Below, piece after piece: positions 31,570 to 59,566 of a DNA stretch of 64,000 bases. The stretch comes from Thermoanaerobaculia bacterium (GTDB lineage: Bacteria; Acidobacteriota; Thermoanaerobaculia; Gp7-AA8). The stretch is taken from positions 5,257 through 69,256 of the forward strand of contig DATLXH010000128.1 in NCBI GenBank assembly GCA_035576005.1, in the 5' to 3' direction. Under the pieces are notes generated by a model that did no database searches, was not told the DNA's origin, and was given only the letters and a program-made list of their open reading frames with translations. Made by a program: the position numbers and the translations under genes. How positions within the stretch are numbered: the stretch's first letter is position 1; every line of letters begins with the position of its first letter.

Positions 31570-31598
31570 CTAGCTCCTTCCCCGCGCCTGCAGCGCAG

Positions 31599-42804: not shown

Positions 42805-42848
42805 TCGGAGCCCGGGATTTCCGCTCCTTCACCTGAGCTGGCAGAACC

Positions 42849-43430: not shown

Positions 43431-43456
43431 GAGTTTTTTGGGAACTCTCCATCGTT

Positions 43457-43690
43457 CGCGTGCTCCCCTCTCCCCGGCGGAGATCGTCTCAAAAGGCCAA
43501 GATGAAAAGCCGAACGGAGAACGCAGAACGAAGAATGAAGAATTTAGAAAGAAAAAAGCGAAAAAAGACTGAAAAAACTCGGAATCCCCCGCTTTGTTTT
43601 CTTCATTCTTCATTCTTCATTCTGCGTTCTGCGTTCGGTTTCTCAAATCTTACTTTTGAGACGATCCCCGCGGGGAGAGGGGAAACCAAA
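43457..43690. mobile_element. AT-rich ~230-bp inverted-repeat element inserted into a REP-like 23-bp palindrome
   Basis: Arms AGATCGTCTCAAAAGGCCAAGATGAAAAGCCGAACGGAGAACGCAGAACGAAGAATGAAGAAT ... ATTCTTCATTCTGCGTTCTGCGTTCGG..CTTTTGAGACGATC. Flanks are CCCCTCTCCCCGGCGG | CCCGCGGGGAGAGGGG. Confidence 0.5.
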
Positions 43691-43740
43691 ACCACTGAGG
43701 CGACTTCCTGTTTCGCAGGAATCCGCCTAGGATCACAGCC

Positions 43741-44514
43741 ATGAAAATCGCAATTGCCGGAAAGGGTGGATCGGGTAAGACCACGATCGGCGGAACGCTG
43801 GCGCGACTGCTCGCGCGTGGCGGCCTGTCTGACGTACTGGCCATCGACGCAGACTCCAATCCAAATCTCGCGCTCACGCTCGGTCTTTCGAGAGAAGCAT
43901 CACAGCAGCTCCGCCCGTTGACGCGCGACATTCTCAAACGGGTGACCGGCGAAGATGGAGAGCAGAGAACGGTGCTCGCAAAGACCCCCGCAGCGGTTGT
44001 GGATGAATACGGAGTGCAGACGCCCGATGGAGTCATGCTCCTGCTCATGGGACGCGTCGAGCACGCCGGCGCCGGCTGAATGTGCGGAGCCCACGCTGCC
44101 GTGCGCAGCCTACTGACTGAAATGATCGCAGAGAACGACCGTCCGACAATCGTGGACATCGAAGCGGGTCTCGAGCATCTGAGCCGGGGAACTGCACGCA
44201 GCGTCGACACGATGCTGGTGATCTTCGAGCCGTACTTCAAATCGATGGAGACGGGCGCACGCATGACGGCGCTGGCTCGGGAGCTGGGAATCCCCCGGGT
44301 CCTTGGAGTTGCCAATAAAGTGACCCCGGCAGATGAGAAAGACCTTGCCGCCTTCTGTCTTTCCCGGGACATGGAGCTGGCGGCGACAATTCCCCGTGAC
44401 GAAGTGATGGCCACGGCTGATCGAAACGGCTCCGGGCCACTGGACGTGAGTAGCAGCAGCCCCGCCATCGACGCGATCGGAAAGCTCGCGGAGCGCTTGA
44501 AAGCTGATGGCTGA
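43741..44514 (+). CDS. cooC: CooC-family (MinD/ParA-type) nickel-insertion ATPase interrupted by an in-frame TGA at codon 113 (first Cys position of the CxC Ni-binding motif). Selenocysteine candidate or pseudogene; the track splits it into 43741..44079 and 44080..44514.
   Basis: Deviant Walker A KGGSGKTT. Downstream DIEAGLEHLSRGT is the CooC hallmark. The sequence reads ...EHAGAG-TGA-ATG-TGC..., i.e. G-[U/*]-M-C. The second half has no RBS of its own. Confidence 0.6.
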
Positions 44515-44517
44515 CGG

Positions 44518-44997
44518 ATGAGGACACTCGTTGCAGGCTTCGGAAACATTCTTCTCGGCGACGACGGGTTCGGCGTCGAGGTGGTCCGACGCCTCGAGCG
44601 CGAAGGGAAGCTCCCTGAGAACACTGAGCTCATCGATGTAGGAATCGGTGGTTTCGATTTCGTTCTCCGCCTCATGGACGGATACGACCGGGTGGTTGTC
44701 GTCGATGCCGTGCGCCGCCGTGAAAGGCCCGGCACCCTCCATGTTTTTCGCCCTGCTCCGACGGACGTCGTCCTCGAGACAGGAGAACGTCTCGACCCGC
44801 ACTTTGCGGAACCGGCGCGAGCGATGATCATGGCCCGTCAGATGTCGTGCCTTCCTGACGACGTCACCGTGGTCGGATGCGAAGTACTGAGTTGCGATCT
44901 GGGCGTCGGCCTCAGCGAGCCCGTGGAAGCTGCAGTCCGGGAAGCGATGGACAGGGTCAAGTCTCTGACCCGCATTTTTCACGGAGCTTTGTCGTGA
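44518..44997 (+). CDS. [NiFe]-hydrogenase maturation endopeptidase (HupD/HoxW/HycI family); 3' end fused into a MITE
   Basis: GNILLGDDGFG (GNxxxxDDGxG) motif. The last ~9 codons are encoded by MITE-A sequence from 44969. Confidence 0.75.
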   Translation: MRTLVAGFGNILLGDDGFGVEVVRRLEREGKLPENTELIDVGIGGFDFVLRLMDGYDRVVVVDAVRRRERPGTLHVFRPAPTDVVLETGERLDPHFAEPARAMIMARQMSCLPDDVTVVGCEVLSCDLGVGLSEPVEAAVREAMDRVKSLTRIFHGALS

Positions 44998-45146
44998 GAC
45001 GGCGGAGAGTGGCTTGGATGCGAGGCGCACGGCGATTTTGCGACGAAGGCATAGTCGACACTATGTCGAGGAGCGAAATTGGCGTGCAACGAAGCAGACA
45101 GGCCGCTATCCGTCGTATCACGGCGAAGGTCTGTGAGAAATGCGGG
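44969..45146. mobile_element. MITE family A copy inserted at the 3' end of the hydrogenase protease gene
   Basis: CCCGCATTTTTCACGGAGCTTTGTCGTGAGACGGCGGAGAGTGGCTTGG ... GAAGGTCTGTGAGAAATGCGGG, followed by TTAATAA. Confidence 0.65.
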
Positions 45147-45165
45147 TTAATAACGGAGCACGCCC

Positions 45166-45972
45166 ATGCAATTTGAAGAGCTCGAAGAATTGATGACCCG
45201 CCTCGAGTCCACCACTGACAACAGCGAGCGACAGCAGATCTACGGGATCGTCGGTCCAATTCTCGATTTTCATCGCCAGGCCTTCGCTCGCGTAGTGGAG
45301 ATTCTCGAGGAGGAAGGGGCACGCCACCTGCTGGACCGCATCGTGCGCGATCCGTTGCTGGAGAGCCTGCTGCGTGGTTACGAGCTCATAGAACTGGGAT
45401 TGGATCAGCGTGTTCTGGCAGCGCTGGAGATCGCCCGCCCGATGCTCAAGATGCACGGAGGAGATGTCTCGCTCGTAAAGATGCGAGGGAAGGTCGCCGA
45501 GCTCGAGCTCACTGGATCGTGCCAGGGCTGCGCGGCCTCCATGACCACTCTGCGCAACCTCATCGAGAAAAATCTCTACCAGCAGGTGCCGGAGCTCCGA
45601 GGAATCGAGGTGGCAGGTCTGACCGCGGCAGGCGCGAGCTCCCAGACCTGGCTTCCGCTCGTGCATCTGTACGAGGTGCGGGACGGGGAATGGCTCAAGG
45701 TTCAGCTCTTCGACGACCAGCTTCTGGTCTGCTCGATGGACGAACATCCTTTTGTATTCGAGAATCGTTGTCCCGCGGGAGGCGAGCCGCTCGACACAGC
45801 GGCTTTCGGGTACCTCTCCATCGGTTGCGTCGAGCACGGCCATCAGTTCGATCTTCGTACCGGCCTGAGCGCCGTCAATCCCGCGTTGCGCCTGCGGATC
45901 TACCCTGCCATCATCGATGATGCCGTCGTCAGGATCGCGTATGAGCCAAACAACGTTCCAGTTGCAGGATGA
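45166..45972 (+). CDS. NifU-like Fe-S assembly domain fused to a Rieske-like [2Fe-2S] domain (hydrogenase-associated)
   Basis: GGDVSLVKMRGKVAELELTGSCQGCAASMTTL (NifU C-terminal-type CxxC) and a C-terminal CPAGG...CVEHGH Rieske-like ligand pattern. Confidence 0.65.
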   Translation: MQFEELEELMTRLESTTDNSERQQIYGIVGPILDFHRQAFARVVEILEEEGARHLLDRIVRDPLLESLLRGYELIELGLDQRVLAALEIARPMLKMHGGDVSLVKMRGKVAELELTGSCQGCAASMTTLRNLIEKNLYQQVPELRGIEVAGLTAAGASSQTWLPLVHLYEVRDGEWLKVQLFDDQLLVCSMDEHPFVFENRCPAGGEPLDTAAFGYLSIGCVEHGHQFDLRTGLSAVNPALRLRIYPAIIDDAVVRIAYEPNNVPVAG

Positions 45973-46294
45973 CATCCTCCAGATGCTGTACTGGATGCGG
46001 GGCGAGCATCTGGGCGACGACGTGTCGAGCGAGCAGCTGAATCAGTTCCTGAAGGTTGACGAGCCACTGCTCGCCGCTTCGATCGAACGACTGGTCGATC
46101 GCAGTCTCCTCGAGAGAGTTGGAGATGCCAGACTACGGCTGACAGCCGTCGGCATCGAAGAGGGGAAGAAACGGTTCCTCGAAGAGTTCTCCACCTATCT
46201 CGGAAAGGAGTCGCACATCGCGTGCAGCGATCCCGAATGCGACTGCAGCAGCGCCGACTGGGTTGGAGCGTGCCGCTCGAGCACGTCGGTTTAG
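45941..46294 (+). CDS. small hydrogenase-associated protein with C-terminal Cys cluster (CSDPECDC...C)
   Basis: ATG overlapping the upstream stop (ATGA). Predicted helical N-terminus, and a Cys-rich tail. Confidence 0.45.
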   Translation: MSQTTFQLQDDILQMLYWMRGEHLGDDVSSEQLNQFLKVDEPLLAASIERLVDRSLLERVGDARLRLTAVGIEEGKKRFLEEFSTYLGKESHIACSDPECDCSSADWVGACRSSTSV

Positions 46295-46359
46295 CAGTCT
46301 AGACACATGGGAAGCTGAAGTTTGAAACCAGCAGGGCTGCAGGCCCGGGAATCGTCGTA

Positions 46360-46557
46360 GCCCCAGCCTTACGGGCTTGTTGCCTAACTTCACAGAGGAG
46401 CGTTCGTCATCCTGAGGAGCGCTTTTGCGACGAAGGATCTCAAAATGCGACGCTGTGAAAATCAATGAGTTACGTATTTTGAGATCCTTCGCTTTCGCTC
46501 AGGATGACGAATCGCTGGTGAGAGTGGAGTTAGGCAACACGCCCGTAAGGCTGGGGC
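46360..46557. mobile_element. ~200-bp lower-GC palindromic element (MITE-like) with ~85-bp arms
   Basis: GCCCCAGCCTTACGGGCTTGTTGCCTAACTTCAC...CGTCATCCTGAGGAGCGC...GAAGGATCTCAAAAT || ATTTTGAGATCCTTCGCTTTCGCTCAGGATGACGA...GTTAGGCAACACGCCCGTAAGGCTGGGGC. Confidence 0.5.
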
Positions 46558-46799
46558 GTTAGTTGACCTAGAGCACGGTGAGCCCCGCAAGGGGCGGCAT
46601 CGATGCCGCCGCTTCGCGGCTCCGTGGAATTCTCGTACAGTCACACCCCACCCTCACGGGTGGGGCTAAACGATATCGCCGCTTCGCGGCTGGGAGGACG
46701 CACCAGTTCATCACCTCTTCACCAGCCGTTCCCGGCTGTTCTCCCGCTACAGGGATGACACGCTCGCGGGTTGATAGAAGGGTTGTGAGAAAATGCCGC

Positions 46800-47648
46800 T
46801 TAACTCGACGGCGCGGCGAAGAGGGATGGATCGAGCGGCACGTTGAACTTGACGTCCTCATACCGGGTCTCGGACGTCTTCTTTCCAATCTTTCCCTTCG
46901 CATCGGCTTGGTATCCGGTGCGAAGCATCGGAAAGCGGATCCCGTCGATCACAGTTTCTTCGGAGTACTCCGTGTAGCTGTACTTACCCGCCTCGTACTC
47001 CAGGTGATTGGCTACCAGCCGACCGTCGCCGGCAAACATGTATGTCCAGGTGTGGAGTCCGCCCGCGTCGCCGGCTCCCTTGTCATAGGTCACGCGAACT
47101 TTGTCGACTTTGGTGCCATCGGCCAACGTCTCGCTGCCTGCGCTGGCGAGGTTCGCCCCACGATCGGTGAGCTTGAAGGGCATCGAAACGACATAGTGCG
47201 ATCCGAAGGTGGCATTCCTGGCGCCGTTCTTCTCGCTGACACCCGTTGCCACCACCCCATCCGCGACCCTCCATGCTTCCCATCCATGGTTGATCAGCAC
47301 GATCTTCCTGCCATCGTCTTCCCACGTGATCCGCATCTTCGGTCCTGGCCGCAGCACGTACTGATGGGTCTGCACCCGGGTGCTTTCCACGGTGCCATCC
47401 TCGCGGAACTTCGTCGTGGTCTTACGAAAAGATAGAGAGTGTTTTGAGCTCCACTCCTTCCATCCGCCGGCGTAGTCAATCCCACGCTGGACAACCTGTC
47501 CTGCTCCATCCTTCGAAAGACGCTCGATCGGGGAGGCCTCCGCCGGTTCACTGGCAGGAGGTTGGGAAACTGTTTCGACAGGGGCCTTCTGGCAGGCCGC
47601 CAGTACGAGAAGGAGCGCGGCTGCTGAGAGTCGTTTCATCGTCTTCAA
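46800..47648 (-). CDS. hypothetical lipoprotein (opposite strand, inside the hydrogenase cluster)
   Basis: Lipobox LLLVLAAC. Length 282 aa. Confidence 0.55.
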   Translation of the reverse strand: MKTMKRLSAAALLLVLAACQKAPVETVSQPPASEPAEASPIERLSKDGAGQVVQRGIDYAGGWKEWSSKHSLSFRKTTTKFREDGTVESTRVQTHQYVLRPGPKMRITWEDDGRKIVLINHGWEAWRVADGVVATGVSEKNGARNATFGSHYVVSMPFKLTDRGANLASAGSETLADGTKVDKVRVTYDKGAGDAGGLHTWTYMFAGDGRLVANHLEYEAGKYSYTEYSEETVIDGIRFPMLRTGYQADAKGKIGKKTSETRYEDVKFNVPLDPSLFAAPSS

Positions 47649-47753
47649 ATGATACCGTAAACCTCCCGGCCACCGACCTCAGCCGCTTCGAAAAGTCGAA
47701 GCTGAGTTGACATCAAGACCCCCTTCGGAAGAAATTGTGGCAGGAGAACATCA

Positions 47754-48041
47754 ATGGATAGCATGACTCTCTGGCAAATCTCCTGGGCAATCGGAGCATT
47801 GGTTGTCGTCATCGTTGCCGTGCTTCTCCTGCTCATCCTCGCAGCTGCCCGACGCATCGATAACCGGGCCAAAGAAATCTGGCAGGCGGGAAAGGAGATC
47901 GCTTCCAATACGGTCTCCATCTGGATGTTGCAGAAAACCAATGTCGTCGCCGGTGAGATCCTCGGTGTTGCGCAGGGGATTGCTGCCGGCGCCGGGGCAA
48001 TAGACGCCAAGCTGGCAGGCCTGGCCGGGAGCAAGAAGTAA
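47754..48041 (+). CDS. small single-pass membrane protein, paralog 1 of a tandem array of four
   Basis: N-terminal TM helix plus an amphipathic Ala/Ile/Gly-rich C-terminal region. Stop and start overlap the next paralog (TAATG). Confidence 0.5.
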   Translation: MDSMTLWQISWAIGALVVVIVAVLLLLILAAARRIDNRAKEIWQAGKEIASNTVSIWMLQKTNVVAGEILGVAQGIAAGAGAIDAKLAGLAGSKK

Positions 48042-48331
48042 TGCGACCGGTTCTGCTGGCCACCCTCATCTATCTCGGGATTCTGGTGGCCGTGCTCGCT
48101 GTGGGTCTGATCATGATCGCCTGGCGGCTATGGGCCACAGGCACGGCACTGGCCGCGATTCGCGACGAGCTGGCTTCCGTTAGGGACGACACTTCACCGC
48201 TGGCGTCCCACATCGGGGCGATCAATGGCGCGCTCTCGCAGTTAGGGGGCGGTCTGGCATCGGTACTGGCACGGCTCGGACGCGCCAACAGCGCGCTGGG
48301 CCGGATCATTGGGAAATCCAAGGTAGCCTGA
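48041..48331 (+). CDS. small single-pass membrane protein, paralog 2
   Basis: Same architecture. TSPLASHIGAINGALSQLGGGL aligns with TTPLTSAIPGVAGNLTSIGEGL of paralog 4. Confidence 0.5.
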   Translation: MRPVLLATLIYLGILVAVLAVGLIMIAWRLWATGTALAAIRDELASVRDDTSPLASHIGAINGALSQLGGGLASVLARLGRANSALGRIIGKSKVA

Positions 48332-48338
48332 GGACGAG

Positions 48339-48635
48339 ATGCCCCTATCCGTCCACATCATCTGGTGGATCACCCTGGCCCTGGCGCTGGGGATCACGGT
48401 CCTTGCCACGGCGTACCTCATTCTCGTCGTTCGGGAGTGTGGACAGATTATGGAACTTGCACGACGAACCATTCCATCGGCACAGCTGATTGCCCGAAAC
48501 ACGAAGGCCATCGCCAGTCTCACGGCGGTCCTCGACCTTGCACCGACACTGCTCAAAGTAGCGGGGAACATCGACCGCGAGTCGGAGACGATTGCTTCCA
48601 CCATCGAATCCGTCGCGCCACGAGCGTCCGCATGA
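48339..48635 (+). CDS. small single-pass membrane protein, paralog 3
   Basis: Same architecture. ATGA overlap with paralog 4. Confidence 0.5.
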   Translation: MPLSVHIIWWITLALALGITVLATAYLILVVRECGQIMELARRTIPSAQLIARNTKAIASLTAVLDLAPTLLKVAGNIDRESETIASTIESVAPRASA

Positions 48636-48925
48636 TTCTCTGGACCGTTCTCAGCTGCGTCCTTTTTCTAACGCTCCTGGCGTTCCTTACCTGGGCGCTC
48701 AACAAAATCCTTCATGCCCTTCAGGCCATCCGCAGCAGCCTCGAGAAAATTGCCATGGGCGTCAAAGCCATCAGCGTCGAGACCACGCCACTCACCAGCG
48801 CGATTCCGGGAGTAGCCGGCAACCTCACCAGCATTGGAGAAGGCCTGGTGATCGTCGAGAAACATCTCACTGGCAGCGCCGCCAGTCTTCCGGGTGCTGC
48901 TCGTGCACTCGGGCTCCTTCCGTGA
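48632..48925 (+). CDS. small single-pass membrane protein, paralog 4
   Basis: Same architecture. Its stop overlaps the hypF GTG start. Confidence 0.5.
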   Translation: MILWTVLSCVLFLTLLAFLTWALNKILHALQAIRSSLEKIAMGVKAISVETTPLTSAIPGVAGNLTSIGEGLVIVEKHLTGSAASLPGAARALGLLP

Positions 48926-51315
48926 CCTCGGGCGGCCACGCTCTCGTCGCCGAACAGACTTCGGCAAGGAGCGGCCTGCGTGTCCGCGGAGTCGTGCAGG
49001 GAGTCGGTTTCCGTCCTTTTGTCTACCGGCTGGCGCGCCAGTATGGGATGTCCGGATTCGTTCGCAACGATTCGGGGGGCGTCTGGATAGAAATCGAAGG
49101 CAGGCACGCGATACTCGCCGAGTTTCCTGATCTGCTCCGTCGCCAGGCTCCCGCGGCCGCTGTCATTCAAGCGATCGAAAGCTTTCCACTTCCCCTGAAG
49201 TTCGACGGCAATTTTTCGGTCATTGAGAGTGCAGCCACGCCCGGGAATCGCGCTCGCATTCCCTGCGATCTCGCTACCTGCAGCTACTGCCTCCAGGAGC
49301 TCTTCGACCCGATGAATCGACGGTATCTCTACCCCTTCATTAACTGCACTGCCTGCGGTCCCCGCTTTTCGATTGTTCGCGATACGCCGTACGACCGAGC
49401 TCGGACGACCATGGACGCCTTTTCCCTATGCGCTGCCTGCCTGGATGAATACCAGAGCCCGGCTGATCGTCGATTCCATGCGGAACCAAACGCCTGCGCC
49501 GTTTGCGGTCCCAGGCTTCAGTTCGTTTCTTCCAGGCCGGAAGAAAATACGCCGCTCTCCGACTCAACAAACAGGGAAGCGCTTGCGCGCGCCGTTGCCT
49601 TGCTCCAGAAGGGCTTGATCGTGGCCATCAAAGGTCTGGGAGGGTTTCATCTCGCCGTTGACGCCACCAACGACGTTGCTGTGCGGAGACTCCGCGATCG
49701 TAAGCAAAGACCTCACAAACCATTCGCCGTGATGGCGCGCGACGCAATCATGGCCTCTACGATCGCTGAGGTTGGTGAAAGTGAAGCCAGGCTACTGACG
49801 TCCGTGCAACGTCCGATCGTCCTGCTCCCAGCGAGAAAGTCGGCTCTTCCGAACTCCATAGCGCCGGCCAGCGACGAGATCGGAGTCATGCTTCCCTACA
49901 CGCCGCTTCATCATCTGTTGCTCGATGCCCTGCCGCTTCTGGTCATGACCAGCGGAAATCGTGCAGATGAGCCGATCGTCATCGACAACGACGTAGCGAT
50001 CGAGCAGCTCTCCGGAATCGCCGACGCCTTCCTCCTGCATGATCGAGAGATTCATGCACGAGTGGACGATTCCGTCACTCGGGTCGCGAACGGGACTCGC
50101 AGAATGCTTCGACGCTCCCGTGGGTTTGTGCCCGATCCGATCGAGCTTCAGCTTCCGGTTCGCCACGCAGCCGAGAGGCAGGGGCAACCATTCCCTTCCG
50201 ACAACGAGGACAACGTACCTTCAGCAGGCCCGACCCCTTCGATTCTGGCGGTGGGCGCGGAGCTCAAAAACACGCTATGCATCACGCGTGGCAGCGAGGC
50301 TTTCCTGTCCCAGCACATCGGAGACCTGGAGTCGCCGGAGTCTCTCGAGTTCTTCAAGGAAACCACCACCCGCCTTTCCCGCCTTCTATCCGTGACGCCC
50401 GCCGTCGTCGCCCACGACCTTCATCCCGATTACGCATCGACACGATGGGCACTGGCCAGCGGACTGCGACGAATCCCGGTGCAGCATCATCACGCTCACA
50501 TCGCCTCCTGTCTGGCTGAGAATGGGAGGAGCGAGCGCGTGATCGGCGTGGCCTTCGATGGCACCGGCTGCGGTCCGGCGGGCGAGTTATGGGGCGGGGA
50601 GTTCCTTCTCGCTGACGCCAGAAATTCAGAGCGGGTCGGCCACCTCCGCCCCCTAGGACTGATTGGCGGAACGGCCGCGATTCGAGAGCCGTGGCGCCTC
50701 GCAGTCGCAGCACTCGATGATGCCGGGGAGGAAACGGACATCCTGAGAGACATCGATCCGTACCGACGTGAAATGGTGTTGTCCATGAGCCGTAAAGGAA
50801 TTCGAACTGTCCGATCGACGAGCGCTGGCCGCTGGTTCGACGCCGTTGCCGCTCTTTGCGCAGTGCGTGAAGAGATTACCTACGAAGCGCAGGCAGCGAT
50901 CGAGCTCGAGGCACTTGCGTCACGTGATGACGTCGAGCCATACAGTTTCACGCTCACAGAAGATGCAGTCTTCGAGGTCGACCTCCGTCCTGCCATTCGC
51001 GAAATCGTCGGCGACCTCCGGGCGGGACTCGCTACAGCCATCATCTCGTCGCGTTTTCATCAGACTATGGCGAGCTTGATTTCCGCTGGGGCAGTCGCTG
51101 CGCGCAGCAGAGGAGGTCCGGCCATCATCGCGCTCTCTGGAGGCTGCTTTCAAAATCGGCTTCTCAGTGAACGGGCACGGACGCTTCTCGAAAGAGACGG
51201 CTTCGAGGTTCTCCAGCATCGCCACGTTCCCGCCAACGATGGCGGGATTGCACTCGGTCAGGCGTTCGTGGCGGCGCACTTGCTGGCTTCCGAGACAGGG
51301 TACGATGCGAGTTAG
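48922..51315 (+). CDS. hypF: [NiFe]-hydrogenase maturation carbamoyltransferase HypF
   Basis: Acylphosphatase domain (VRGVVQGVGFRPFVYRLA), two CxxC-x18-CxxC zinc fingers, and YrdC-like and Kae1/YgjD-like C-terminal domains. Confidence 0.9.
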   Translation: MTSGGHALVAEQTSARSGLRVRGVVQGVGFRPFVYRLARQYGMSGFVRNDSGGVWIEIEGRHAILAEFPDLLRRQAPAAAVIQAIESFPLPLKFDGNFSVIESAATPGNRARIPCDLATCSYCLQELFDPMNRRYLYPFINCTACGPRFSIVRDTPYDRARTTMDAFSLCAACLDEYQSPADRRFHAEPNACAVCGPRLQFVSSRPEENTPLSDSTNREALARAVALLQKGLIVAIKGLGGFHLAVDATNDVAVRRLRDRKQRPHKPFAVMARDAIMASTIAEVGESEARLLTSVQRPIVLLPARKSALPNSIAPASDEIGVMLPYTPLHHLLLDALPLLVMTSGNRADEPIVIDNDVAIEQLSGIADAFLLHDREIHARVDDSVTRVANGTRRMLRRSRGFVPDPIELQLPVRHAAERQGQPFPSDNEDNVPSAGPTPSILAVGAELKNTLCITRGSEAFLSQHIGDLESPESLEFFKETTTRLSRLLSVTPAVVAHDLHPDYASTRWALASGLRRIPVQHHHAHIASCLAENGRSERVIGVAFDGTGCGPAGELWGGEFLLADARNSERVGHLRPLGLIGGTAAIREPWRLAVAALDDAGEETDILRDIDPYRREMVLSMSRKGIRTVRSTSAGRWFDAVAALCAVREEITYEAQAAIELEALASRDDVEPYSFTLTEDAVFEVDLRPAIREIVGDLRAGLATAIISSRFHQTMASLISAGAVAARSRGGPAIIALSGGCFQNRLLSERARTLLERDGFEVLQHRHVPANDGGIALGQAFVAAHLLASETGYDAS

Positions 51316-51332
51316 CGGGCTAGGGGGAAACC

Positions 51333-51623
51333 ATGTGTCTCGGTATACCAGGTGAGATTCTCGAGTTACGAGTCGAGAAAGGATTGCCATTCGGCAAAGT
51401 GAAGTTCGGCGGCATCACCCGGTCCGTCTGCCTGGCCTACGTGCCTGAGGCCTCCGTAGGCGAGTTCGTGGTCGTTCACGTCGGCTTTGCCATCTCCATC
51501 ATCGACGCCGAGGAGGCAGCGCAGGCATACAAAATCCTCGAAGAGATCGGTCAGATCGGAGAGCTCACCGCGGACCTTCCACCCGACATCCTCGCCAACC
51601 TTCCTTCCAGCAAAGTCCAATGA
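51333..51623 (+). CDS. hypC: hydrogenase assembly chaperone HypC/HupF
   Basis: N-terminal MCLGIPGEI signature. Confidence 0.9.
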
Positions 51624-52726
51624 AATACCTCGACGAATACCGCGATAGTGCGGTGGCTGCCGCCCTGGTCCGTGAGATCAAAACCGTGGCCACGCGCCCG
51701 TGGGTACTCATGGAAGTCTGCGGCGGACAGACGCATTCGATCGTCCGCTACGGCATCGATCGCATGCTTCCCACCTCGGTCGAGCTCGTTCACGGACCAG
51801 GCTGTCCCGTCTGCGTCACGTCCCTCGAGACAATCGATCGCGCTCATGCAATCGCCAGCCGTCCCGACGTCATTTTCACGTCCTTCGGCGACATGCTCCG
51901 AGTTCCCGGATCGCGTGGTGATCTGCTGGCGCTCAAGAGTCGTGGAGCTGACGTCCGCGTGGTCTACTCTCCGCTGGACGCCGTCCGAATTGCGCGCGAC
52001 AACCCTACCCGGCAGGTCGTGTTCTTCGGCATTGGATTCGAAACCACGGCGCCAGCAAATGCCATGGCGGTTTTCAGCGCCAAGAAGGAAGGGCTGAAGA
52101 ATTTCTCGATGCTCGTTTCTCACGTGCTGGTGCCACCGGCCATGGCATCGATCCTCCAGGCTCCGGGCAATCGCGTGGAAGGCTTCCTCGGGCCCGGTCA
52201 TGTCTGCTCGATCATGGGGACCAGAGAGTACGAGTCGTTGTCGGCCCGGTTCAAAGTACCGATCGTGATCACTGGTTTCGAGCCGATCGATCTGCTCGAG
52301 GGCATCCTCATGACGGTAAGACAGCTGGAAAGTGGACAGGCAACCGTCGAGAATCAGTACGCGCGCGCAGTGAGTGCGGAAGGGAATCTCCCCGCACAAA
52401 AAATCCTGTTTGAGGTCTTCGAGATCACCGATAGAAAGTGGCGCGGTGTCGGCTCCATCCCCAAGTCCGGATACAAGCTCCGCTACGAATACCGGGAGCA
52501 CGACGCTGCGAAACTTTTCGAGGTCGAGGATATCGAGACGGCCGAGCCGGAGGTCTGCATCAGCGGACTCATTCTTCGCGGCCTCAAAAAGCCGCACGAC
52601 TGTCCGGCCTTCGGGAAAGAGTGCCGGCCCGAGCATCCCATCGGAGCGACGATGGTTTCGGCTGAAGGCTCCTGCGCCGCCTACCTCCAGTATGGACGGT
52701 ATCCAGAAGCACACGAGTCGGTATGA
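51620..52726 (+). CDS. hypD: hydrogenase maturation factor HypD
   Basis: [13 protein letters not shown] and FEPID-type conserved motifs. ATGA overlap with hypC. Confidence 0.9.
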
Positions 52727-53331
52727 CTGGTACCCATGAGCGCGTCGACCTTCGTGATGCCATCCTTCGGAAAGCAGGAGAAAGCGCGGAGCTGAAGACA
52801 CGGTTCTTCGAGGAGAACGCGGATCTTCTCATCCGTTGCGTGGAACGGCTCGCCGAATCGTTTCGCTCCGGAGGTCGGCTGCTTGTCATGGGCAACGGAG
52901 GATCGGCTTGTGACGCGCAGCATGTGGCCATCGAGTTTCAGCATCCCATCATCGAGAAGCGCAAACCGCTGCCTGCCATGGCCCTCACTGTCGACACCGC
53001 CGCACTCACCGCCATCGGAAATGACGGCGACTTCGCGCGCGTGTTCGTCGAACAACTGGACATGCTGGGCCGCACCGGCGATGCAATTCTCGGGATCTCT
53101 TCCTCAGGTGCATCGGCAAACGTGAATCGTGCGTTGAAGCGAGGACGCGAGATGGGTCTCGTCACCATCGGCTTCTCGGGACGGGACGGCGGCCGGATGC
53201 CCGAGCTATGCGACTTCTGTTTCACTGTCCCCAGCTGGTCGATCCACCGCATCCAGGAAGTGCACACGACGCTGCTGCATCTTCTGTGGGACCTTGTCCA
53301 CGTCTCTATGGGAGAGGACGATGTCCTCTGA
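52723..53331 (+). CDS. SIS-domain protein (GmhA-like sugar-phosphate isomerase fold) embedded in the hyp operon
   Basis: [15 protein letters not shown] and [16 protein letters not shown] motifs. Coupled by overlap to hypD and hypE. Confidence 0.8.
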
Positions 53332-54385
53332 TTCCGGTAGCTCCACTCCCTTCTCCGACTGTCCACTCCCTTTCCGCGACACGTCCCAGATCCTGCTCGG
53401 ACACGGAAGCGGCGGGAAGCTCACCGGAGAACTGATCGAGAAGCTTCTGTTGCCAGCATTCAACAATGACGTTCTGTCTCAGCTCGACGATCAGGCGATT
53501 CTAACCATCGGCGACTCACGCATCGCCTTCACGACCGACAGCTATGTCGTCACCCCGATCTTTTTCCGGGGCGGCGACATCGGCTCACTGGCGGTGAACG
53601 GCACAATCAATGACCTGGCCATGGGTGGGGCGGTGCCAAAGTTCCTCTCTCTCGCGCTGATTCTCGAAGAAGGTCTTGCCATGGGGGATCTCGAGCGCGT
53701 CGTGGCCTCAATACGCGATGCTTCGCGAGCTGCCGGTGTGGCGATTGTTACGGGCGACACGAAAGTCGTGGGACGCGGCAGCGGTGACAAAATCTTCATC
53801 AATACCGCCGGGATCGGCATCGTCCCCGAGGGCGTTACTCTTTCGTCGAAGCAGGTCAGGCCGGGTGATGACATCCTGCTCTCCGGTCCGATCGGCGATC
53901 ACGGAATTGCGATCCTTTCTCAACGCGAAGGGCTCGAGTTCGACGGAGAGATTGCAAGCGACACTGCTCCGCTTCACACGCTCGTGGCCGCTATGCTCAA
54001 AGCGTCGTCGTCGATCCATGCGATGCGTGATCCCACACGCGGCGGTCTGGCAGCGACACTCGTGGAGATCGCGACACGGCAACACCTCGGCATGGAAATC
54101 GACGAACCATCCATCCCTGTGCGAGAAGTCGTCCGCGGTGCGTGCGAGATTCTCGGACTCGACCCGATGTTCGTGGCGAACGAAGGGAAGCTCGTCGCCT
54201 TCGTACCACCGGAGAGCACCGATGACGTCCTGCGCGCCATGCGCGAACATCCTCTGGGTAGAGACGCCGTGCGGATCGGTGGCGTTATCAAAGATTCGTC
54301 CGGGCGCGTTCGCCTCCGCACCCCGATTGGTGGCTATCGGCTACTCGACCTTCCCTTTGGGGAGCTTCTCCCACGAATCTGCTGA
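53321..54385 (+). CDS. hypE: hydrogenase maturation factor HypE
   Basis: PurM-like fold and the C-terminal PRIC motif. Confidence 0.9.
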   Translation: MSSDSGSSTPFSDCPLPFRDTSQILLGHGSGGKLTGELIEKLLLPAFNNDVLSQLDDQAILTIGDSRIAFTTDSYVVTPIFFRGGDIGSLAVNGTINDLAMGGAVPKFLSLALILEEGLAMGDLERVVASIRDASRAAGVAIVTGDTKVVGRGSGDKIFINTAGIGIVPEGVTLSSKQVRPGDDILLSGPIGDHGIAILSQREGLEFDGEIASDTAPLHTLVAAMLKASSSIHAMRDPTRGGLAATLVEIATRQHLGMEIDEPSIPVREVVRGACEILGLDPMFVANEGKLVAFVPPESTDDVLRAMREHPLGRDAVRIGGVIKDSSGRVRLRTPIGGYRLLDLPFGELLPRIC

Positions 54386-54404
54386 GACGCGACACGCAGA
54401 CTAA

Positions 54405-54600
54405 ACCCTCTCCCCGGCGGGGAGAGGGTGGTCGCGTAAGCGACCGGGAGAGGGGCCGCGAAAGATACGATGGCCTCAACTATCGCGAAACCCCTGCTCA
54501 ACACGGCCCTTATCGTGTCGACCCTGACCGCATGAATTGCGAGACTTTCGCGCCCCTCTCCCTGCTTTCGCTTCGCTCGCTTCCCTCTCCCCGCCGGGGC
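54405..54600. repeat. composite REP-like element (family R), right terminal palindrome truncated by an insertion
   Basis: CCCTCTCCCCGGCGGGGAGAGGGTGGTCGCGTAAGCGACCGGGAGAGGGGCCGCGAAAGATACGA...CCCTCTCCCCGCCGGGG|. Confidence 0.6.
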
Positions 54601-55113
54601 ATATGCGCTAACTTTACCTCGCGGGGTCGCAGGCCCCCGGTCCCTCAGAGGGTAGCCGGTGGTGCGAGCGTTAGCGAGTGACCACCGGGATGCGTCGGCG
54701 AAAGACAGTTCGACCCCGGATGGGGTCGCGTAGTTCTCACCAGAGATAGCGCTCGTCGTACTCGACATTGTGCTCTTCGAGAAACTCCGTGTACTTCCCC
54801 TGGAACGTTCTCCCGCGGTGATGTTTCTCCTGTTCCCGAACGGACTTTCGAACTGACGGTACGGCTGATTTGCTCACCGAGAACGCCACTCAGCGTCGAT
54901 GAAGGGAACACGGTCCTTCGTGCTAAGCACGATGGGAATGGGAAGGCTGCTATGTGTCGACGGCATCGCAAGATCCTACGCGGCCCCTCCGGGGTCGAAT
55001 GACTTCCGCGAATCCATAGACCCGGTGGTCACTCGCTAACGCTCGCACCACCGGCTACCCTATGAGGGACCGGGGCCTAGATCCGCGAGGTAAAGTTAGC
55101 GCGTATGCCCCAG
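54598..55113. mobile_element. ~515-bp non-coding element with ~93-bp terminal inverted repeats, inserted into the shared palindrome of two tandem REP-like elements
   Basis: Left TIR GGGGCATATGCGCTAACTTTACCTCGCGGGGTCGCAGGCCCCCGGTCCCTCAGAGGGTAGCCGGTGGTGCGAGCGTTAGCGAGTGACCACCGG. Its reverse complement is at 55020-55113 (~92% identity). No convincing ORF inside. Confidence 0.55.
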
Positions 55114-55265
55114 CGGGGAGAGGGTGGTCGCGTAAGCGACCGGCAGGAGGGGCCGCGAGAGATACGAAGACCTCGCCTTTTCCGACGGACTGGCGAGACT
55201 TTCACGCCCCTCTCCCTGCTTCGCTTCGCTCGCATCCCTCTCCCCGCCGGGGAGAGGGATGCGCC
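55100..55265. repeat. composite REP-like element (family R), left terminal palindrome truncated
   Basis: |AGCGGGGAGAGGGTGGTCGCGTAAGCGACC...CCCTCTCCCCGCCGGGGAGAGGGATGCGCCGCTTCGCGGCTC. Confidence 0.6.
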
Positions 55266-55353
55266 GCTTCGCGGCTCAACCATGTCAGTCAGTGAACCGA
55301 TTTCTGCTTCGACTGTCGGAATGCTTTCGGTACGAGCGCGTTCTCATTGACGC

Positions 55354-55710
55354 ATGCTGAGTCTCCTTCGGTCGATCCTCATCCTCACGGCGATTCTTTC
55401 GATAAGCCCTGCGGCGCACGCAGCGGATCGTCAGGTCCTCGTGTTCGACATCAAAGGGATGCATTGCTCGGGATGTGCGTCCGGGATCAAAGCGATGCTC
55501 GTGCGAGTGCAGGGAGTTACGAAAGCGGAAGTGAGCTACGAGGAAACACGCGCGCGCGTGGAGTACGATCCCGCCAGAACGACTTCGGCGACGATCATCG
55601 ACACCGTCGAGAAGATGGGTTACAAAGTCAGGCCGCGAAAAGTAGTCAGGCAATCTGAGCGGCAAGGTGCACGAAGTAAGCACCTGCGCCGATCAACGCC
55701 AGTCCGCTGA
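55354..55710 (+). CDS. periplasmic heavy-metal-associated (HMA) domain protein (MerP/CopZ-like)
   Basis: Signal peptide, and GMHCSGCASGIK (GMxCxxC) in a betaalphabetabetaalphabeta-length domain. The 3' end overlaps the convergent membrane-protein gene. Confidence 0.75.
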   Translation: MLSLLRSILILTAILSISPAAHAADRQVLVFDIKGMHCSGCASGIKAMLVRVQGVTKAEVSYEETRARVEYDPARTTSATIIDTVEKMGYKVRPRKVVRQSERQGARSKHLRRSTPVR

Positions 55711-56345
55711 ACACCTCCGCCGCGCGCCGTCCCCGCTCGACTCGCGCAATCCATCCGGCAACGCGACCCGCAAACAAGCCGGTCAGTAGAAACGGCAGGC
55801 CACGTCCAATGCCGTATGAGAGCGACAGAACAGCCCCGTAAAGCGGCTTCCCGACCGCCGCAGCGATGGTGAGCAGAAGCATCAGTGGTCCCGCCGAAGT
55901 CGTGAGGGTGGCCACGGTGTAGGAAAGGCCGTAGACGAATGCGCCTCCGATCCCTCCGCGTTTCTCCACCTTCGGGTTCGAGAAACGACGTCGCAACAGA
56001 GGGGCGGATAGCGCGATGAGCCCGGCTACGATCGACAATATCGCCGTTGCCAGAGCGAAACCTGCGCTCCATCGCACGAGCAGACGGCCGAAGTAGGCCG
56101 CGGCCGTGCCGAGCACGAGCAGGCTGAGGGTGACGCCGGCGAAGAACGACGCGGCCAGTATCAGGCCGCCTCGACGCGATTTCTCCGCCTGGCCATGTTC
56201 ATACGCACCGATGTAACCGATCATCCCCACACCTGCGGGGAAGGTGCAGGGTCACGTGGTGGTGGACAGCACCCCTCCGATCAATGCAGACAGAAGGGCG
56301 ATGATCGGTTGATGCTGGATGGCTGAGGAGACACGCTCCAGGAAT
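55646..56345 (-). CDS. DsbD_2/CcdA-like polytopic membrane protein with an in-frame TGA immediately before a conserved Pro-Cys (…GGVLSTTT-TGA-PCTFPAG…). Selenocysteine candidate or pseudogene; the track lists only 55646..56230.
   Basis: The frame from TTG (56343) or a later start is stop-free except for the single TGA at 56245-56247. The upstream 33 codons encode a TM helix homologous to the CcdA TM1 LxxGLLSFLSPC region. The rest of the protein has no Cys. Confidence 0.5.
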
Positions 56346-56508
56346 TCAAATGGATTCAATTCTCATATCTCGACAACGGTGATTGGTCCACCGCTTCGAG
56401 AGCCTCCTCGATCTGGTTGGAACTGGACGCGCAAGGCCCGGCACCGCGAACGTCGACGGAACACTCACGAGTAACCGGGCTGACTGTGCAGCCCGGTACT
56501 CGTTACCG

Positions 56509-56652
56509 TTACGTCTTGACCATGTCGCGCCCGCAGCAGCAGCGTGGCGACTTGTCGCCGTTGCAGCTTTCCGGAGCACCCTTCGTAACTTCAATCTCAC
56601 ACCCACAGTTCGCGTCGGGACATTTGAAGCGCTCGCCTTTCTTGAATGGCAT
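56509..56652 (-). CDS. 47-aa cysteine-rich peptide (7 Cys): MPFKKGERFKCPDANCGCEIEVTKGAPESCNGDKSPRCCCGRDMVKT
   Basis: Strong AAAAAGGAGAG RBS 7 nt upstream of ATG (56652). Lies between merR and the CcdA-like gene on the same strand. Below the 60-aa ORF-track cutoff. Confidence 0.55.
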   Translation of the reverse strand: MPFKKGERFKCPDANCGCEIEVTKGAPESCNGDKSPRCCCGRDMVKT

Positions 56653-56696
56653 GACGTTCTCTCCTTTTTCGATGCGACATCCGTCGCAACTGTCTT

Positions 56697-57137
56697 CTAC
56701 AACTCAGACCGTACCGCGGTTCCTATTCCCGAAGGCTCCGGAACTTCCTCGATGGCGTCGAGAATCGGACAGGCGCTCGTGGGACCTTCACCGGTGCACG
56801 CGAGCGTGATCTCGACCAGAGCAGCGCGCATGGCGTGCAACGATGCAATCTTCCCGTCAATGTGCGCAAGCTTCAATTCCGCCTCGCTCTTCACCTCAGC
56901 ACAACCCCTTGCCGGATCGAGTCTCAATTCGAGTAACTGTTTGATCTCGGCGAGTGAAAATCCGAGCTCCTGAGCCCGGCGGACGAAACGGATCCGCCGC
57001 GTCGCATCCTCATCGTAGTGACGAAATCCTGATAACGGACGTCCCGGACGAGTAAGCAGTTTCTTGCGCTCATAGAAGCGAATCGTCTCTACGCCGACAC
57101 CAGAGGCGGCGGCGAGCTCGCCGATCGTCATTGACAT
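56697..57137 (-). CDS. merR: MerR-family metal-responsive transcriptional regulator
   Basis: N-terminal HTH (MTIGELAAASGVGVETIRFYERKKLL), coiled-coil, and C-terminal metal-binding Cys pair (ACTGEGPTSAC). Confidence 0.85.
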   Translation of the reverse strand: MSMTIGELAAASGVGVETIRFYERKKLLTRPGRPLSGFRHYDEDATRRIRFVRRAQELGFSLAEIKQLLELRLDPARGCAEVKSEAELKLAHIDGKIASLHAMRAALVEITLACTGEGPTSACPILDAIEEVPEPSGIGTAVRSEL

Positions 57138-57144
57138 CGGGAAA

Positions 57145-57175
57145 GGATATCGTCTGTACTATGGTACGGAGTCAA
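57145..57175 (-). promoter_or_regulatory. MerR-type promoter: -35 TTGACT, 19-bp spacer containing dyad CCGTACCATAGTACAG, -10-like ATATCC. Nearly identical to the Tn21 merOP dyad TCCGTACATGAGTACGGA.
   Basis: rc of 57145-57175 = TTGACTCCGTACCATAGTACAGACGATATCC. It ends ~7 nt before the merR ATG, giving a leaderless or near-leaderless transcript. Confidence 0.55.
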
Positions 57176-57281
57176 ATATCGCAATGATGTGGCTGCCACC
57201 ATTGAGCTGGGTTCCGGCTTCACGTCCTGCCGACACATCCACGAAAAGGCCTTCCTTGGGTCCGGGAGCCTGCAGCCGCCG

Positions 57282-58391
57282 ATGAAACGAGCTGCAGCAA
57301 CTCTTCTCTTCTCAATCCTGTTTCGTTGCGACAGCGTAGGACCGGCCTCACCGGCATCGGTGCCGGCTACGACTGTGCCCTCGGCGACGACGACCGCGGC
57401 GACCGCGGCGACGACGACGAAAGTCCGCGGTATGAACTTCGCCCACTCCCTGGGGCGTCGCTCGGGCGGAGGGCGCGGCTATGGTTCTGAGGCGTCTTTG
57501 CAGTCGCTGCGTTCGCTCCGTTCGCTCCACGTCGATTCGATTGCCATCACCCCTTTCGGATTTCAGCGCCGACCCGACGACACTCGCATCATCTGGGTCG
57601 GTGAGGGAGATGGCGGCCGCTGGATCGATGAGACGGACGACTCTCTGCGCGCTGTGATAACCCAGGCACACCAGCTCGGCCTTCGCGTGCTGCTCAAACC
57701 ACACCTGTGGCTTCGCCCACCCGACTGGCCCGGCTCAATCGATCATGCCACCGAAGCAGAGTGGGCACTCTGGTTCGCAGAGTACGGGAAGTTCATCCTT
57801 CACTACGCCCGCCTCGCCGAGTCCATGCAAGTGGAGATGCTCTCGATTGGCAACGAGCTCACAAAATCCACATCGCACGAACAGCCCTGGCGCGATTTGA
57901 TCGCACAGATTCGCGCGGCTTATCGCGGAAAGCTGACGTATGGCGCCAATATGAATGAAGTCTTCGACGTTCCCTTCTGGGATGCCGTCGACGTCATCGG
58001 AGTCAGCGCTTACTTTCCTCTAAACGCGAGAAAGAACCCAACGACGGACGAGATTGCAATCGGCTGGACTCCGATCGTGGCCCGACTGTCACGACTGTCC
58101 AGGAGAACGAATCGACCTGTGCTCTTCACCGAGCTTGGTTACACCAGCCGCGACTACGCGACTGCTGAGCCCTGGAAGGAGGAGGGCGGAGAGCTCAACC
58201 TTCAACTACAGGCGGAGGCGTACCAGGCATTTTTCCAGGCCGTCTGGCCGCAACCCTGGTTTGCCGGGGTCTACTTCTGGAAGTGGGAGTCTCACCTCAA
58301 CCACTCGACCAGCACCGATGTCAGCTTCGCCATCGAGCACAAGCCGGCCGAGGCAGTCGTACGGAAGCACTTCGATCTAAAAGTGAAGTGA
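57282..58391 (+). CDS. secreted TIM-barrel glycoside hydrolase (GH5/GH113-like)
   Basis: Signal peptide with Thr/Ala linker. Catalytic-type GNELT (acid/base Glu) and FTELGYTS (nucleophile Glu) motifs. Confidence 0.6.
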   Translation: MKRAAATLLFSILFRCDSVGPASPASVPATTVPSATTTAATAATTTKVRGMNFAHSLGRRSGGGRGYGSEASLQSLRSLRSLHVDSIAITPFGFQRRPDDTRIIWVGEGDGGRWIDETDDSLRAVITQAHQLGLRVLLKPHLWLRPPDWPGSIDHATEAEWALWFAEYGKFILHYARLAESMQVEMLSIGNELTKSTSHEQPWRDLIAQIRAAYRGKLTYGANMNEVFDVPFWDAVDVIGVSAYFPLNARKNPTTDEIAIGWTPIVARLSRLSRRTNRPVLFTELGYTSRDYATAEPWKEEGGELNLQLQAEAYQAFFQAVWPQPWFAGVYFWKWESHLNHSTSTDVSFAIEHKPAEAVVRKHFDLKVK

Positions 58392-59068: not shown

Positions 59069-59104
59069 ATTGTGGCCGGACATTCCAATGTCCGGCGGAT
59101 CAGC

Positions 59105-59282
59105 CCCGCATTTCTCACAGACCTTCGCCGCGAGACGACGAATAGCGGCCTGTCTGCTTCGTTGCACGGCAATTTCGCTCCTTGAGATAGTGTCGACTAT
59201 GCCTTCGTCGCAAAATCGCCGTGCGCCTCGCATCCAAGCCACTCTCCGCCGTCTCACGACAAAGGTCTGTGAGAAATGCGGG
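59105..59282. mobile_element. MITE family A copy (inverse orientation) inserted inside a palindromic hairpin
   Basis: Flanks TGTGGCCGGACATTCCAATGTCCGGC (59072-59097) and GCCGGACATTGGAATGTCTGGCCACA (59313-59338) are inverted copies. Confidence 0.65.
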
Positions 59283-59566
59283 CTAGTGGTGGTGCGCTGC
59301 GTGGCATCCCAGGGAAGCCGGACATTGGAATGTCTGGCCACAATTCAGTTGATGGGTTAGGCGTGTCGATTCCAGCGGTTGCAGCGCAGCGTCGACGTTC
59401 TCCGGTGGCTTGGAGGTTGCGGCCGCACGCCGTGCGGCCCTACCCCAACGCTTCAAGGGCGACCCGAAAGGATTCAACCTGATAATCTCGCGTCGCAAAA
59501 ACCGTTGACCGTTCGCCCCGTATACCCTCCTGCCTCAAAGCTTTCGCAAGGAGAAGGACCAATCAG

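Follow-up and report, generated by a model that had tools for sequence, protein, structure and literature searches.

A conserved in-frame TGA almost certainly encodes selenocysteine in a CcdA-like membrane protein from a heavy-metal resistance operon of Acidobacteriota

Results and discussion

Based on comparative sequence analysis we found that a gene for a CcdA-like membrane protein, located on the minus strand of a 64,000-nucleotide stretch of DNA from a Thermoanaerobaculia bacterium (contig DATLXH010000128.1; the whole stretch is referred to below as the window), carries a TGA at codon 36 that is almost certainly a real selenocysteine (Sec) codon, and that the gene is part of a heavy-metal resistance operon. 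The initial annotation of the window, made from the sequence alone, had proposed that this TGA is decoded as Sec. Its proposal was supported by the alternation of TGA and TGC between orthologs, by an N terminus that the orthologs share, by a covarying hairpin of the type of a selenocysteine insertion sequence (SECIS), and by a cooC-like gene in the same window. Taken as a whole, we consider it likely that the gene is an intact Sec gene, in which a SECIS-decoded UGA36 leads to a membrane protein with a U-P-C motif that belongs to a soft-metal module. The coordinates of all features are collected in Table 1.

The TGA at codon 36 is followed by CCC and TGC (Pro-Cys), and on translation the peptide reads ...GGVLSTTT-U-PCTFPAGVGMIGY, the product of the full frame being MNPFEFLERVSSAIQHQPIIALLSALIGGVLSTTT-(TGA)-PCTFPAGVGMIGY... 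Besides this codon the frame contains no further stops and no frameshifts, which confirmed that a TGA immediately before Pro-Cys is the sole interruption, as had been noticed initially. The gene layout of the initial annotation was also correct as to the sequence, and only small details of the coordinates had to be changed. The frame 5' of the TGA is open for 36 codons (35 when counted from the start codon). An ATG or GTG is located 8-10 codons past the TGA and opens the open reading frame (ORF) of 192-194 aa that would be expected from gene callers. According to the ORF list this downstream ORF has zero Cys, in agreement with the earlier remark that decoding the TGA as a stop leaves a product without the Cys-bearing helix. 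No sigma-70-type promoter match was found in the region 55200-57300.

Conservation of the TGA and of the N-terminal coding region

A search of 5.8 billion proteins yielded 109 homologs. Approximately 75 of these (54-97% identity) are annotated as proteins of about 192 aa, beginning at a Met or Val right after the TGA. The full-length homologs (228-238 aa, 36-55% identity), of which the database holds more than 25, carry C-P-C at the aligned site, in the context VLSTSxCPCTLPAG. At the DNA level we compared the loci of the 'truncated' relatives together with 80 loci from species-representative genomes. The TGA was present at exactly this codon in all 22 loci of one clade (20 distinct sequences), the proteins of which share 57-95% identity. 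These Sec-form loci are mostly from Acidobacteriota (Thermoanaerobaculia, Blastocatellia/Pyrinomonadaceae, Chloracidobacterium and unclassified members), and the non-acidobacterial ones are one metagenome-assembled genome (MAG) of a Gemmatimonadaceae and one contig of 3.5 kb binned as Clostridia. The protein of this contig (CAZPQE010000620.1, 'uncultured Clostridia') nests among acidobacterial sequences, and the binning of this short contig is probably wrong. In about 55 more distant loci from Planctomycetota, Bacteroidota, Methylobacterium and other Acidobacteriota, the aligned codon is TGT or TGC and the C-P-C is invariant. The ortholog alignment thus alternates between TGA and TGC/TGT at exactly codon 36. 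A metagenome scan with a single protein query gave 2 loci only.

Neighboring third codon positions differ in 62% of the pairwise comparisons, while the TGA stays in 22 of the 22 loci, which bears out the earlier argument that this codon is no random nonsense mutation. Pairwise differences at codon positions 1, 2 and 3 amounted to 0.33, 0.15 and 0.62 upstream of the TGA and to 0.36, 0.27 and 0.63 downstream of it; in the DNA 5' of the start codon they were flat (0.73, 0.73 and 0.73). This coding-type periodicity upstream of the TGA, as opposed to the flat profile of the 5' DNA, indicates that the 35 codons before it are translated and subject to purifying selection. A start codon (ATG, GTG or TTG) was located 35 codons 5' of the TGA in each of the 19 Sec-form loci compared. 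The orthologs therefore share the N terminus and begin at the upstream codon, and not at the downstream ATG, a start that the initial annotation had named as evidence against its own proposal.

In a rough neighbor-joining tree most members of the 237-aa subfamily are Sec forms, and a small Cys clade stands beside the Sec form from Gemmatimonadaceae. As this Cys clade adjoins a Sec form, at least one switch between Sec and Cys must have taken place inside the 237-aa subfamily.

A covarying SECIS-type hairpin downstream of the TGA

To characterize the sequence 3' of the codon, 63 nt from the TGA onward were aligned for the 20 distinct Sec forms. RNAalifold predicted a single hairpin, formed by alignment columns 14-20 with 25-31, of which the stem begins 11 nt and the loop 17 nt past the UGA. 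Pairing was observed in 100% of the cells across the 20 sequences. The pair 18/27, which consists of the wobble bases of a Pro and a Val codon, covaries (U-A in 10 sequences, C-G in 7 and G-C in 3); in addition, one change from C-G to U-A was found in the outer pair 15/30, and the pair 19/26 changed from G-U to A-U once and to G-C once. The observed pairing and covariation were reached by 0 of 500 shuffles and by no slid register. Downstream of the TGA there is thus a SECIS-type hairpin that shows compensatory changes.

The hairpin energy of the Sec forms was on average -10.9 kcal/mol (range -9.7 to -12.4 kcal/mol). As a control 50 distinct Cys forms were analyzed, and these retained on average 4.6 of the 7 pairs at -3.5 kcal/mol. 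In each of the three Cys forms whose encoded peptide is likewise P-A-G-V/A-G at least one pair is broken (-4.5 to -7.7 kcal/mol), which indicates that the hairpin is not simply a by-product of the peptide. The 11-nt spacing between UGA and stem is the one required of the minimal SECIS of Escherichia coli fdhF. The published model of the bacterial SECIS (bSECIS) comprises a stem of 4-16 bp, a loop of 3-9 nt that has a G among its first two positions and follows the UGA at a distance of 16-37 nt, and a minimum free energy of at most -7.5 kcal/mol (PMC13188914). With a 4-nt loop (RGGY), a stem of 7 bp, 17 nt between UGA and loop and an energy within the above range, the hairpin agrees with this model in all respects.

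A different hairpin of 5 bp (CCUGC/GCAGG, columns 5-9 with 19-23) had been pointed out in the initial annotation. It is present in the window and overlaps the hairpin that is truly conserved, but is itself not conserved, as one pair is broken in 12 of the 20 sequences and none of its pairs covaries; it was therefore rejected as a SECIS. A search of the hairpin region against Rfam gave no family at E <= 10 except for a chance match to a snoRNA, and Rfam seems to be without a model for this kind of element.

Fold of the protein and position of the U-P-C motif

When the TGA is read as Cys, the protein matches the Pfam domain DsbD_TM (PF02683) with 39.2 bits, compared to a gathering score of 27.1, and the full-length Cys homologs align with it end to end. 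Among solved structures CcdA was the sole match of the family profile. An AlphaFold model was made of a Cys homolog with 54% identity (pLDDT 74), for which Foldseek returned CcdA of Thermus thermophilus (5VKV) as the best and sole convincing match (probability 1.0, 28% identity, TM-score 0.47-0.49). This model has two helix breaks, one at residues 36-38 (the CPC) and one at residue 156, which correspond to the pseudo-symmetric pair of half-helix junctions in the CcdA fold. The positive-inside rule would place the three Arg/Lys-rich loops 53-66, 119-136 and 207-217 in the cytoplasm and both termini in the periplasm.

The membrane protein and the transmembrane (TM) domain of CcdA/DsbD have the fold and the TM1 motif LS..xPCxxP in common. 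In the profile alignment the TM1 sequence LAGVLS-FLSPCVLP of CcdA 5VKV corresponds to GGVLSxxxCPCTLP of the family, which confirmed the similarity to TM1 of CcdA that had been recognized at first. As the SPC of CcdA lines up with the U/C-P-C, Cys38 is equivalent to the active-site Cys in TM1 of CcdA, and the extra Cys or Sec, two residues before it, replaces a Ser. The second Cys of CcdA is found in TM4 within TPCIGP, whereas the family has TSSAGP throughout, and in the alignment no Cys is conserved besides the C/U-P-C. The thiol-disulfide shuttle between two helices, as known from CcdA, is therefore impossible, and the chemistry is concentrated in the vicinal pair of TM1. Thus the protein has the fold of CcdA but is not a canonical CcdA electron transporter, and its gene context is also one of metal resistance and not of cytochrome c maturation. 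The initial annotation had compared the U-P-C to the metal-translocation CPC of P1B-type ATPases; this would be an analogy, to which the gene context and the loss of the second redox Cys lend some weight.

Gene neighborhood

The genes on the minus strand are co-directional and start with merR, followed by the gene for a small Cys-rich protein and the selenoprotein gene; the gene for a secreted HMA-domain protein is convergent on the 3' end of the latter. This HMA protein, the presumed partner of the membrane protein, scored 75.6 bits against the NCBIfam model for UxxU metal-binding (seleno)proteins and 49.7 bits against that for MerP. The MerR regulator remained just under the NCBIfam cut-offs of MerR, ZntR, CueR and CadR alike, and the small Cys-rich protein of 47 aa may be metallothionein-like.

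In 19 Sec-form loci a MerR regulator and an adjacent HMA gene were each found in 17, a true P1B-type ATPase in about 10 and the small Cys-rich protein in 7. The P1B-type ATPase of the related loci scored best as Cu(I) type (442 bits, cut-off 397). The Cys forms are encoded in the same kind of module, near HMA genes, P1B-type ATPases and mer genes, and an HMA gene is adjacent in 67 of 70 Cys-form loci. For the Cys forms of Tenacibaculum and Algoriphagus the gene of an HMA lipoprotein overlaps the start of the membrane protein gene, and genes of ArsR and MerA type are found nearby, as judged from N-terminal sequences only. On one soil contig the Cys form is accompanied by a complete mer operon and by Tn7-like genes.

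A locus of Acidobacteria bacterium SCN 69-37 showed the reverse distribution of the two forms. Its convergent HMA gene (minus strand, approximately 6700-7000) reads GMT-TGA-TGC (U-x-x-C) with the TGA near 6830, and its membrane protein, encoded at 6001-6654, has C-P-C, indicating that either of the two partners can carry the Sec.

Upstream of the selenoprotein gene an inverted repeat was observed at 56455-56515, which overlaps the last codons of the small Cys-rich gene. It has 9 perfect base pairs, can be extended to 24 nt at 75%, and might function in the operon as an attenuator or as an element for processing or stability.

A second gene with an in-frame TGA and the use of TGA in the window

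The [NiFe]-hydrogenase/hyp cluster of the window contains a gene for a CooC-like P-loop ATPase that also has an in-frame TGA. It occupies the position of the first Cys in the family motif HAGAG-C-x-C, a residue that is present in the full-length homologs, none of which exceeds 56% identity. Over 120 entries in the databases correspond to C-terminal parts of about 143 aa beginning right after this TGA. In three loci examined at the DNA level the codons TGA-ATG-TGC are retained, and for each of these loci a hairpin is predicted a few nt further 3'. These results are in line with the initial observation that the first Cys codon of this C-x-C is a TGA as well, and the cooC-like gene is probably a second uncatalogued selenoprotein family. 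As it behaves alike in the same window, it provides indirect support for Sec decoding in the organism. MAG JBKJQB01 carries both Sec forms, that of the membrane protein and that of the cooC-like gene.

TGA is the most common stop codon in the window, where it ends 35 of 61 ORFs, and HypE ends with TGA at its canonical C-terminal PRIC. A global reassignment of UGA was therefore rejected. Sec use has been documented in some Acidobacteria (PMC1794560, PMC12013277, PMC13582414).

Proposed mechanism and alternative explanations

In the mechanism that we propose the ribosome would pass UGA36, the hairpin 11 nt downstream would serve as the bacterial SECIS, and Sec would be inserted at residue 36 by SelB and Sec-tRNA(Sec). 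The predicted product is a membrane protein of 237 residues and six helices with the CcdA/DsbD_TM fold, having U36-P-C38 at the mid-membrane break of TM1 as its sole reactive residues. The family has lost the TM4 Cys of the CcdA shuttle and gained a vicinal Cys or Sec two residues before the TM1 Cys. The gene is part of a conserved soft-metal module together with those of the MerR-type sensor, the small Cys-rich protein, the secreted MerP-like HMA protein and often a P1B-type ATPase. The selenol-thiol pair of the protein would most likely bind a thiophilic metal ion such as Hg(II), Cu(I), Cd(II) or similar, which would then pass between the periplasmic HMA partner and the cytoplasmic side, in the way that the Cys pair of MerT works with MerP. 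Selenium would lower the pKa and raise the affinity for soft metals, so that capture would be faster. The evidence presented here covers the recoding signals, the fold and the gene context, and for the function of the U-P-C as a soft-metal relay we regard the chances as roughly even.

Several observations weigh against this interpretation. The hairpin is short (7 bp), and its stem and loop overlap the P-A-G-V-G codons that are also kept in the close Cys forms, so that its conservation is partly driven by the protein. The 63-nt region folds no better than shuffled sequence (z = -0.47); it is thus the covariation, and not the energy, that carries the case for a SECIS, the energy by itself being uninformative. 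Pfam scans of 20 large ORFs in the 64-kb window did not find selA, selB or selD, those ORFs being the hydrogenase/hyp cluster and housekeeping genes only. There is also no tRNA-Sec in the window, the sole tRNA of which is a tRNA-Gln, and no tRNA at all in the 20 Sec-form loci. The signals for the metal disagree with each other, as the three-Cys pattern of the regulator is that of divalent-metal sensors and the ATPase is of the Cu(I) type. MerA was not found in the window and occurs near some of the Cys forms only. Furthermore, a CxC pair can also be redox-active, and a metal relay is therefore not told apart from an electron relay.

The main functional rival is a redox relay, in which Sec is again inserted at UGA36 and the U-P-C cycles between selenenylsulfide and selenol/thiol. 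As a one-helix variant of the electron shuttle of CcdA, DsbD and ScsB, the protein would then supply the HMA partner, or metal-thiolates in the periplasm, with reducing equivalents from the cytoplasm. We regard this as a serious possibility, with a clearly less than even chance of being correct. The fold and the TM1 motif are those of the electron transporter CcdA, and the CxxC of the secreted HMA partner must stay reduced. Mia40 likewise has a CPC as its redox-active motif, and the initial isolation of DsbD was as a copper-tolerance gene. Most catalogued bacterial selenoproteins have Sec in redox motifs (PMC13188914). Against a redox relay, several catalogued selenoproteins of heavy-metal systems (MerT, the HMA protein with UxxU and the SO_0444 transporter with UxC) carry Sec in metal-binding motifs. 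In addition, the TM4 Cys that is essential in the known mechanism of CcdA/DsbD is absent from the whole family, and in the annotated loci no gene for a thioredoxin-fold partner was seen.

The remaining explanations concern the decoding itself. The UGA could be read with the help of the hairpin and yet be translated as Cys or another residue, either by a selC*/tRNA-ReC via SelB or by near-cognate read-through. Insertion of Cys at UGA by way of SelB has been described and is being surveyed in MAGs with Sec-type hydrogenases, including Acidobacteriota (PMC13582414); the tRNA-Sec-like tRNA from which SelB would deliver Cys (tRNA-ReC) is cited in the same work. Sequence alone does not separate Sec from Cys at a SECIS-dependent UGA. 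We nevertheless find the insertion of Cys improbable, as it is rare compared to ordinary Sec decoding, which is documented for Acidobacteria (PMC1794560, PMC12013277), and as a plain TGC would give the same product free of cost, yet the TGA and the hairpin have been kept across a deep clade. Even less probable is a true stop at UGA36, giving a peptide of 35 residues and perhaps a separate protein of 192 residues, with the hairpin serving reinitiation or mRNA stability. Every database entry of the clade has been annotated in this way by gene callers, TGA is a normal stop codon in the genome, and a possible start follows 8-10 codons on. Such a stop would, however, cut TM1 two residues before the only conserved Cys, at a codon that encodes Cys in contiguous homologs, and the 192-aa product would be without any reactive residue. 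The Met of the 'internal start' is not conserved either (orthologs read GVGM, GVGI, GVGV or GAGI), and the spacing and loop of the hairpin match the SECIS model. One in-frame stop in one MAG-derived window would usually be read as a pseudogene, a random nonsense mutation or a sequencing or assembly error. Here we give that reading practically no credence and consider it excluded, since the same TGA is found in 20 distinct sequences from independent assemblies of several classes of Acidobacteriota, and since purifying selection acts on both sides of it in a frame that has no other stops or frameshifts.

Relation to known selenoproteins and metal-transport systems

Similar to the MerT/MerP system, the product of the Sec-coding gene is a small membrane protein that has its vicinal thiol pair in TM1, and the gene is accompanied by those of a secreted HMA protein and a MerR-type regulator. 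Sec also replaces Cys in MerT of some lineages (the C/SxxU form of PF02411, and the MerT/CopZ fusion selenoprotein NF045683). The folds are unrelated, however, with six helices compared to three in MerT, and the window is without MerA; no Pfam or NCBIfam model of the MerT family matched the membrane protein. The SO_0444 family of Cu/Zn efflux transporters (NF033936) is alike in being a metal-transport membrane protein that is annotated by NCBI as a selenoprotein, with Sec as the first residue of U-x-C, but it belongs to a different fold family without sequence relationship, and NF033936 did not match the membrane protein at E <= 0.1. The only catalogued selenoprotein with a DsbD-type membrane domain is the rhodanese/DsbD fusion-like TsoB (NF045694). 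This was the only NCBIfam match of the membrane protein, with 30.5 bits over the DsbD part compared to a cut-off of 805. TsoB differs in its length (572 profile positions), its rhodanese domain and its UxxxxU motif, and has no U-P-C in TM1. The P1B-type ATPases, which are encoded nearby in about half of the loci, have in common the Cys-Pro-Cys at a break of a TM helix and the handling of soft metals. This likeness is confined to the motif, as the membrane protein is unrelated in fold and lacks ATPase domains.

The 2026 catalogue of prokaryotic selenoproteins lists MerT (C/SxxU), P1B-ATPase (UxxC), HMA protein (UxxU), SO_0444 (UxC) and TsoB (UxxxxU). A stand-alone CcdA/DsbD_TM or a CooC-type selenoprotein is absent from this review catalogue, and neither was found in the main text of the BSepDB paper (111 families) and of the deep-Sep paper. 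A literature search for CcdA/DsbD or CooC selenoproteins found none, the matches to 'CooC' being due to the word 'cooccurrence', and NCBIfam has no model for the membrane protein family. The membrane protein represents a new, uncatalogued family in a well-known kind of system, in which Sec takes the place of Cys by means of a standard bacterial SECIS, and no new mechanism is involved.

This kind of finding will not surprise a specialist in selenoproteins, and its value lies in an uncatalogued family, a membrane-embedded Sec, a rewired fold and a probable second family. Every public entry of the clade is a truncated protein of about 192 aa without the reactive residues, which is the usual mis-annotation of selenoproteins, and recognition of the Sec codon restores the true product for approximately 75 database clusters. 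The selenoproteome gains one family, and probably two, from Acidobacteriota, a dominant soil phylum with a small known selenoproteome. For the CcdA fold the family is a natural experiment, in which it can be asked by what changes an electron shuttle becomes a metal-handling or a one-helix redox device and what selenium contributes. With regard to ecology, it links the availability of selenium to the tolerance of soil bacteria to heavy metals.

A further-reaching view, to which we would assign a chance somewhat short of even, is that this is the first selenoprotein with Sec inside the membrane, its U-P-C being a selenol-thiol site for the movement of soft metal ions in the translocation path of a CcdA-fold protein, and that together with the Sec form of the CooC-like protein it represents a metal-trafficking selenoproteome in soil Acidobacteriota (Thermoanaerobaculia and Blastocatellia). 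If so, Sec would replace the first Cys of C-x-C metal sites and would not serve redox catalysis, a use that current annotation pipelines and catalogues would have overlooked.

Other features of the window

Table 1. Positions of the features described in the text, numbered from the first nucleotide of the window
Feature	Position	Strand	Details and basis
Full selenoprotein gene (predicted)	55646..56359	minus	237 codons, TTG start, U36-P37-C38; translation, DsbD_TM match, Cys homologs
Start codon TTG	56357..56359	minus	one codon (GAA) past an in-frame stop; orthologs have ATG/GTG/TTG here
In-frame TGA, predicted Sec codon, residue 36	56252..56254	minus	22/22 clade loci keep TGA
TGC, Cys38, second residue of U-P-C	56246..56248	minus	profile alignment to CcdA 5VKV and homolog alignment
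SECIS-type hairpin UCCCCGC-AGGU-GUGGGGA	56224..56241	minus	7 bp, 4-nt RGGY loop; RNAalifold consensus
Own stop codon TGA of the membrane protein gene	55648-55646	minus	translation
MerR-family metal-sensing regulator	56697..57137	minus	Cys79/Cys114/Cys123; Pfam MerR, MerR_1, MerR-DNA-bind
Small Cys-rich protein	56509..56652	minus	47 aa, 9 Cys; ORF list; weak NCBIfam MymT match (E 2e-4, below cut-off)
Secreted HMA-domain protein, MerP-like	55354..55710	plus	signal peptide, GMHCSGC; Pfam HMA
CooC-like P-loop ATPase in [NiFe]-hydrogenase/hyp cluster	43741-44514	plus	in-frame TGA 44077-44079
[NiFe]-hydrogenase small subunit	39486-40811		
[NiFe]-hydrogenase large subunit	40945-42804		ends ...NTCACGVE-TGA
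NifU-Rieske protein	45166-45972		
HypF	48592-51315		
HypD	51620-52726		
HypE	53294-54385		

The hydrogenase cluster that hosts the cooC-like gene (39486-54385) is of ordinary content, which includes a SIS-domain protein. A family of intergenic repeats, comprising 12975-13186, 39199-39363 and 54403-54475 with 55187-55259, flanks this cluster on both sides with intact or split copies. The copy downstream of hypE is halved by an insert of approximately 710 nt that has its own inverted repeat of 55 nt (54635-54689 / 55021-55075) and looks like a nested insertion.

Another intergenic repeat is palindromic, about 180 nt long and present in at least 5 copies (25055-25236, 31391-31572, 32440-32625, 44968-45149 and 59104-59285). 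The copies are up to 98% complementary and resemble a miniature inverted-repeat transposable element or an element of the repetitive extragenic palindromic type. A direct repeat of approximately 270 nt (92-95% identical) was found at 16056-16326 and 23409-23680, 7.35 kb apart. The ORF of a large serine recombinase (3245-4996, plus strand) runs into a tRNA-Gln (4862-4936, minus strand), and this overlap may be the integration site of a mobile element or an over-called ORF end. Finally, the Rfam small RNA Acido-Lenti-1 was detected at 46646-46691 on the plus strand with 47.1 bits (gathering score 37), which fits the acidobacterial origin of the DNA.

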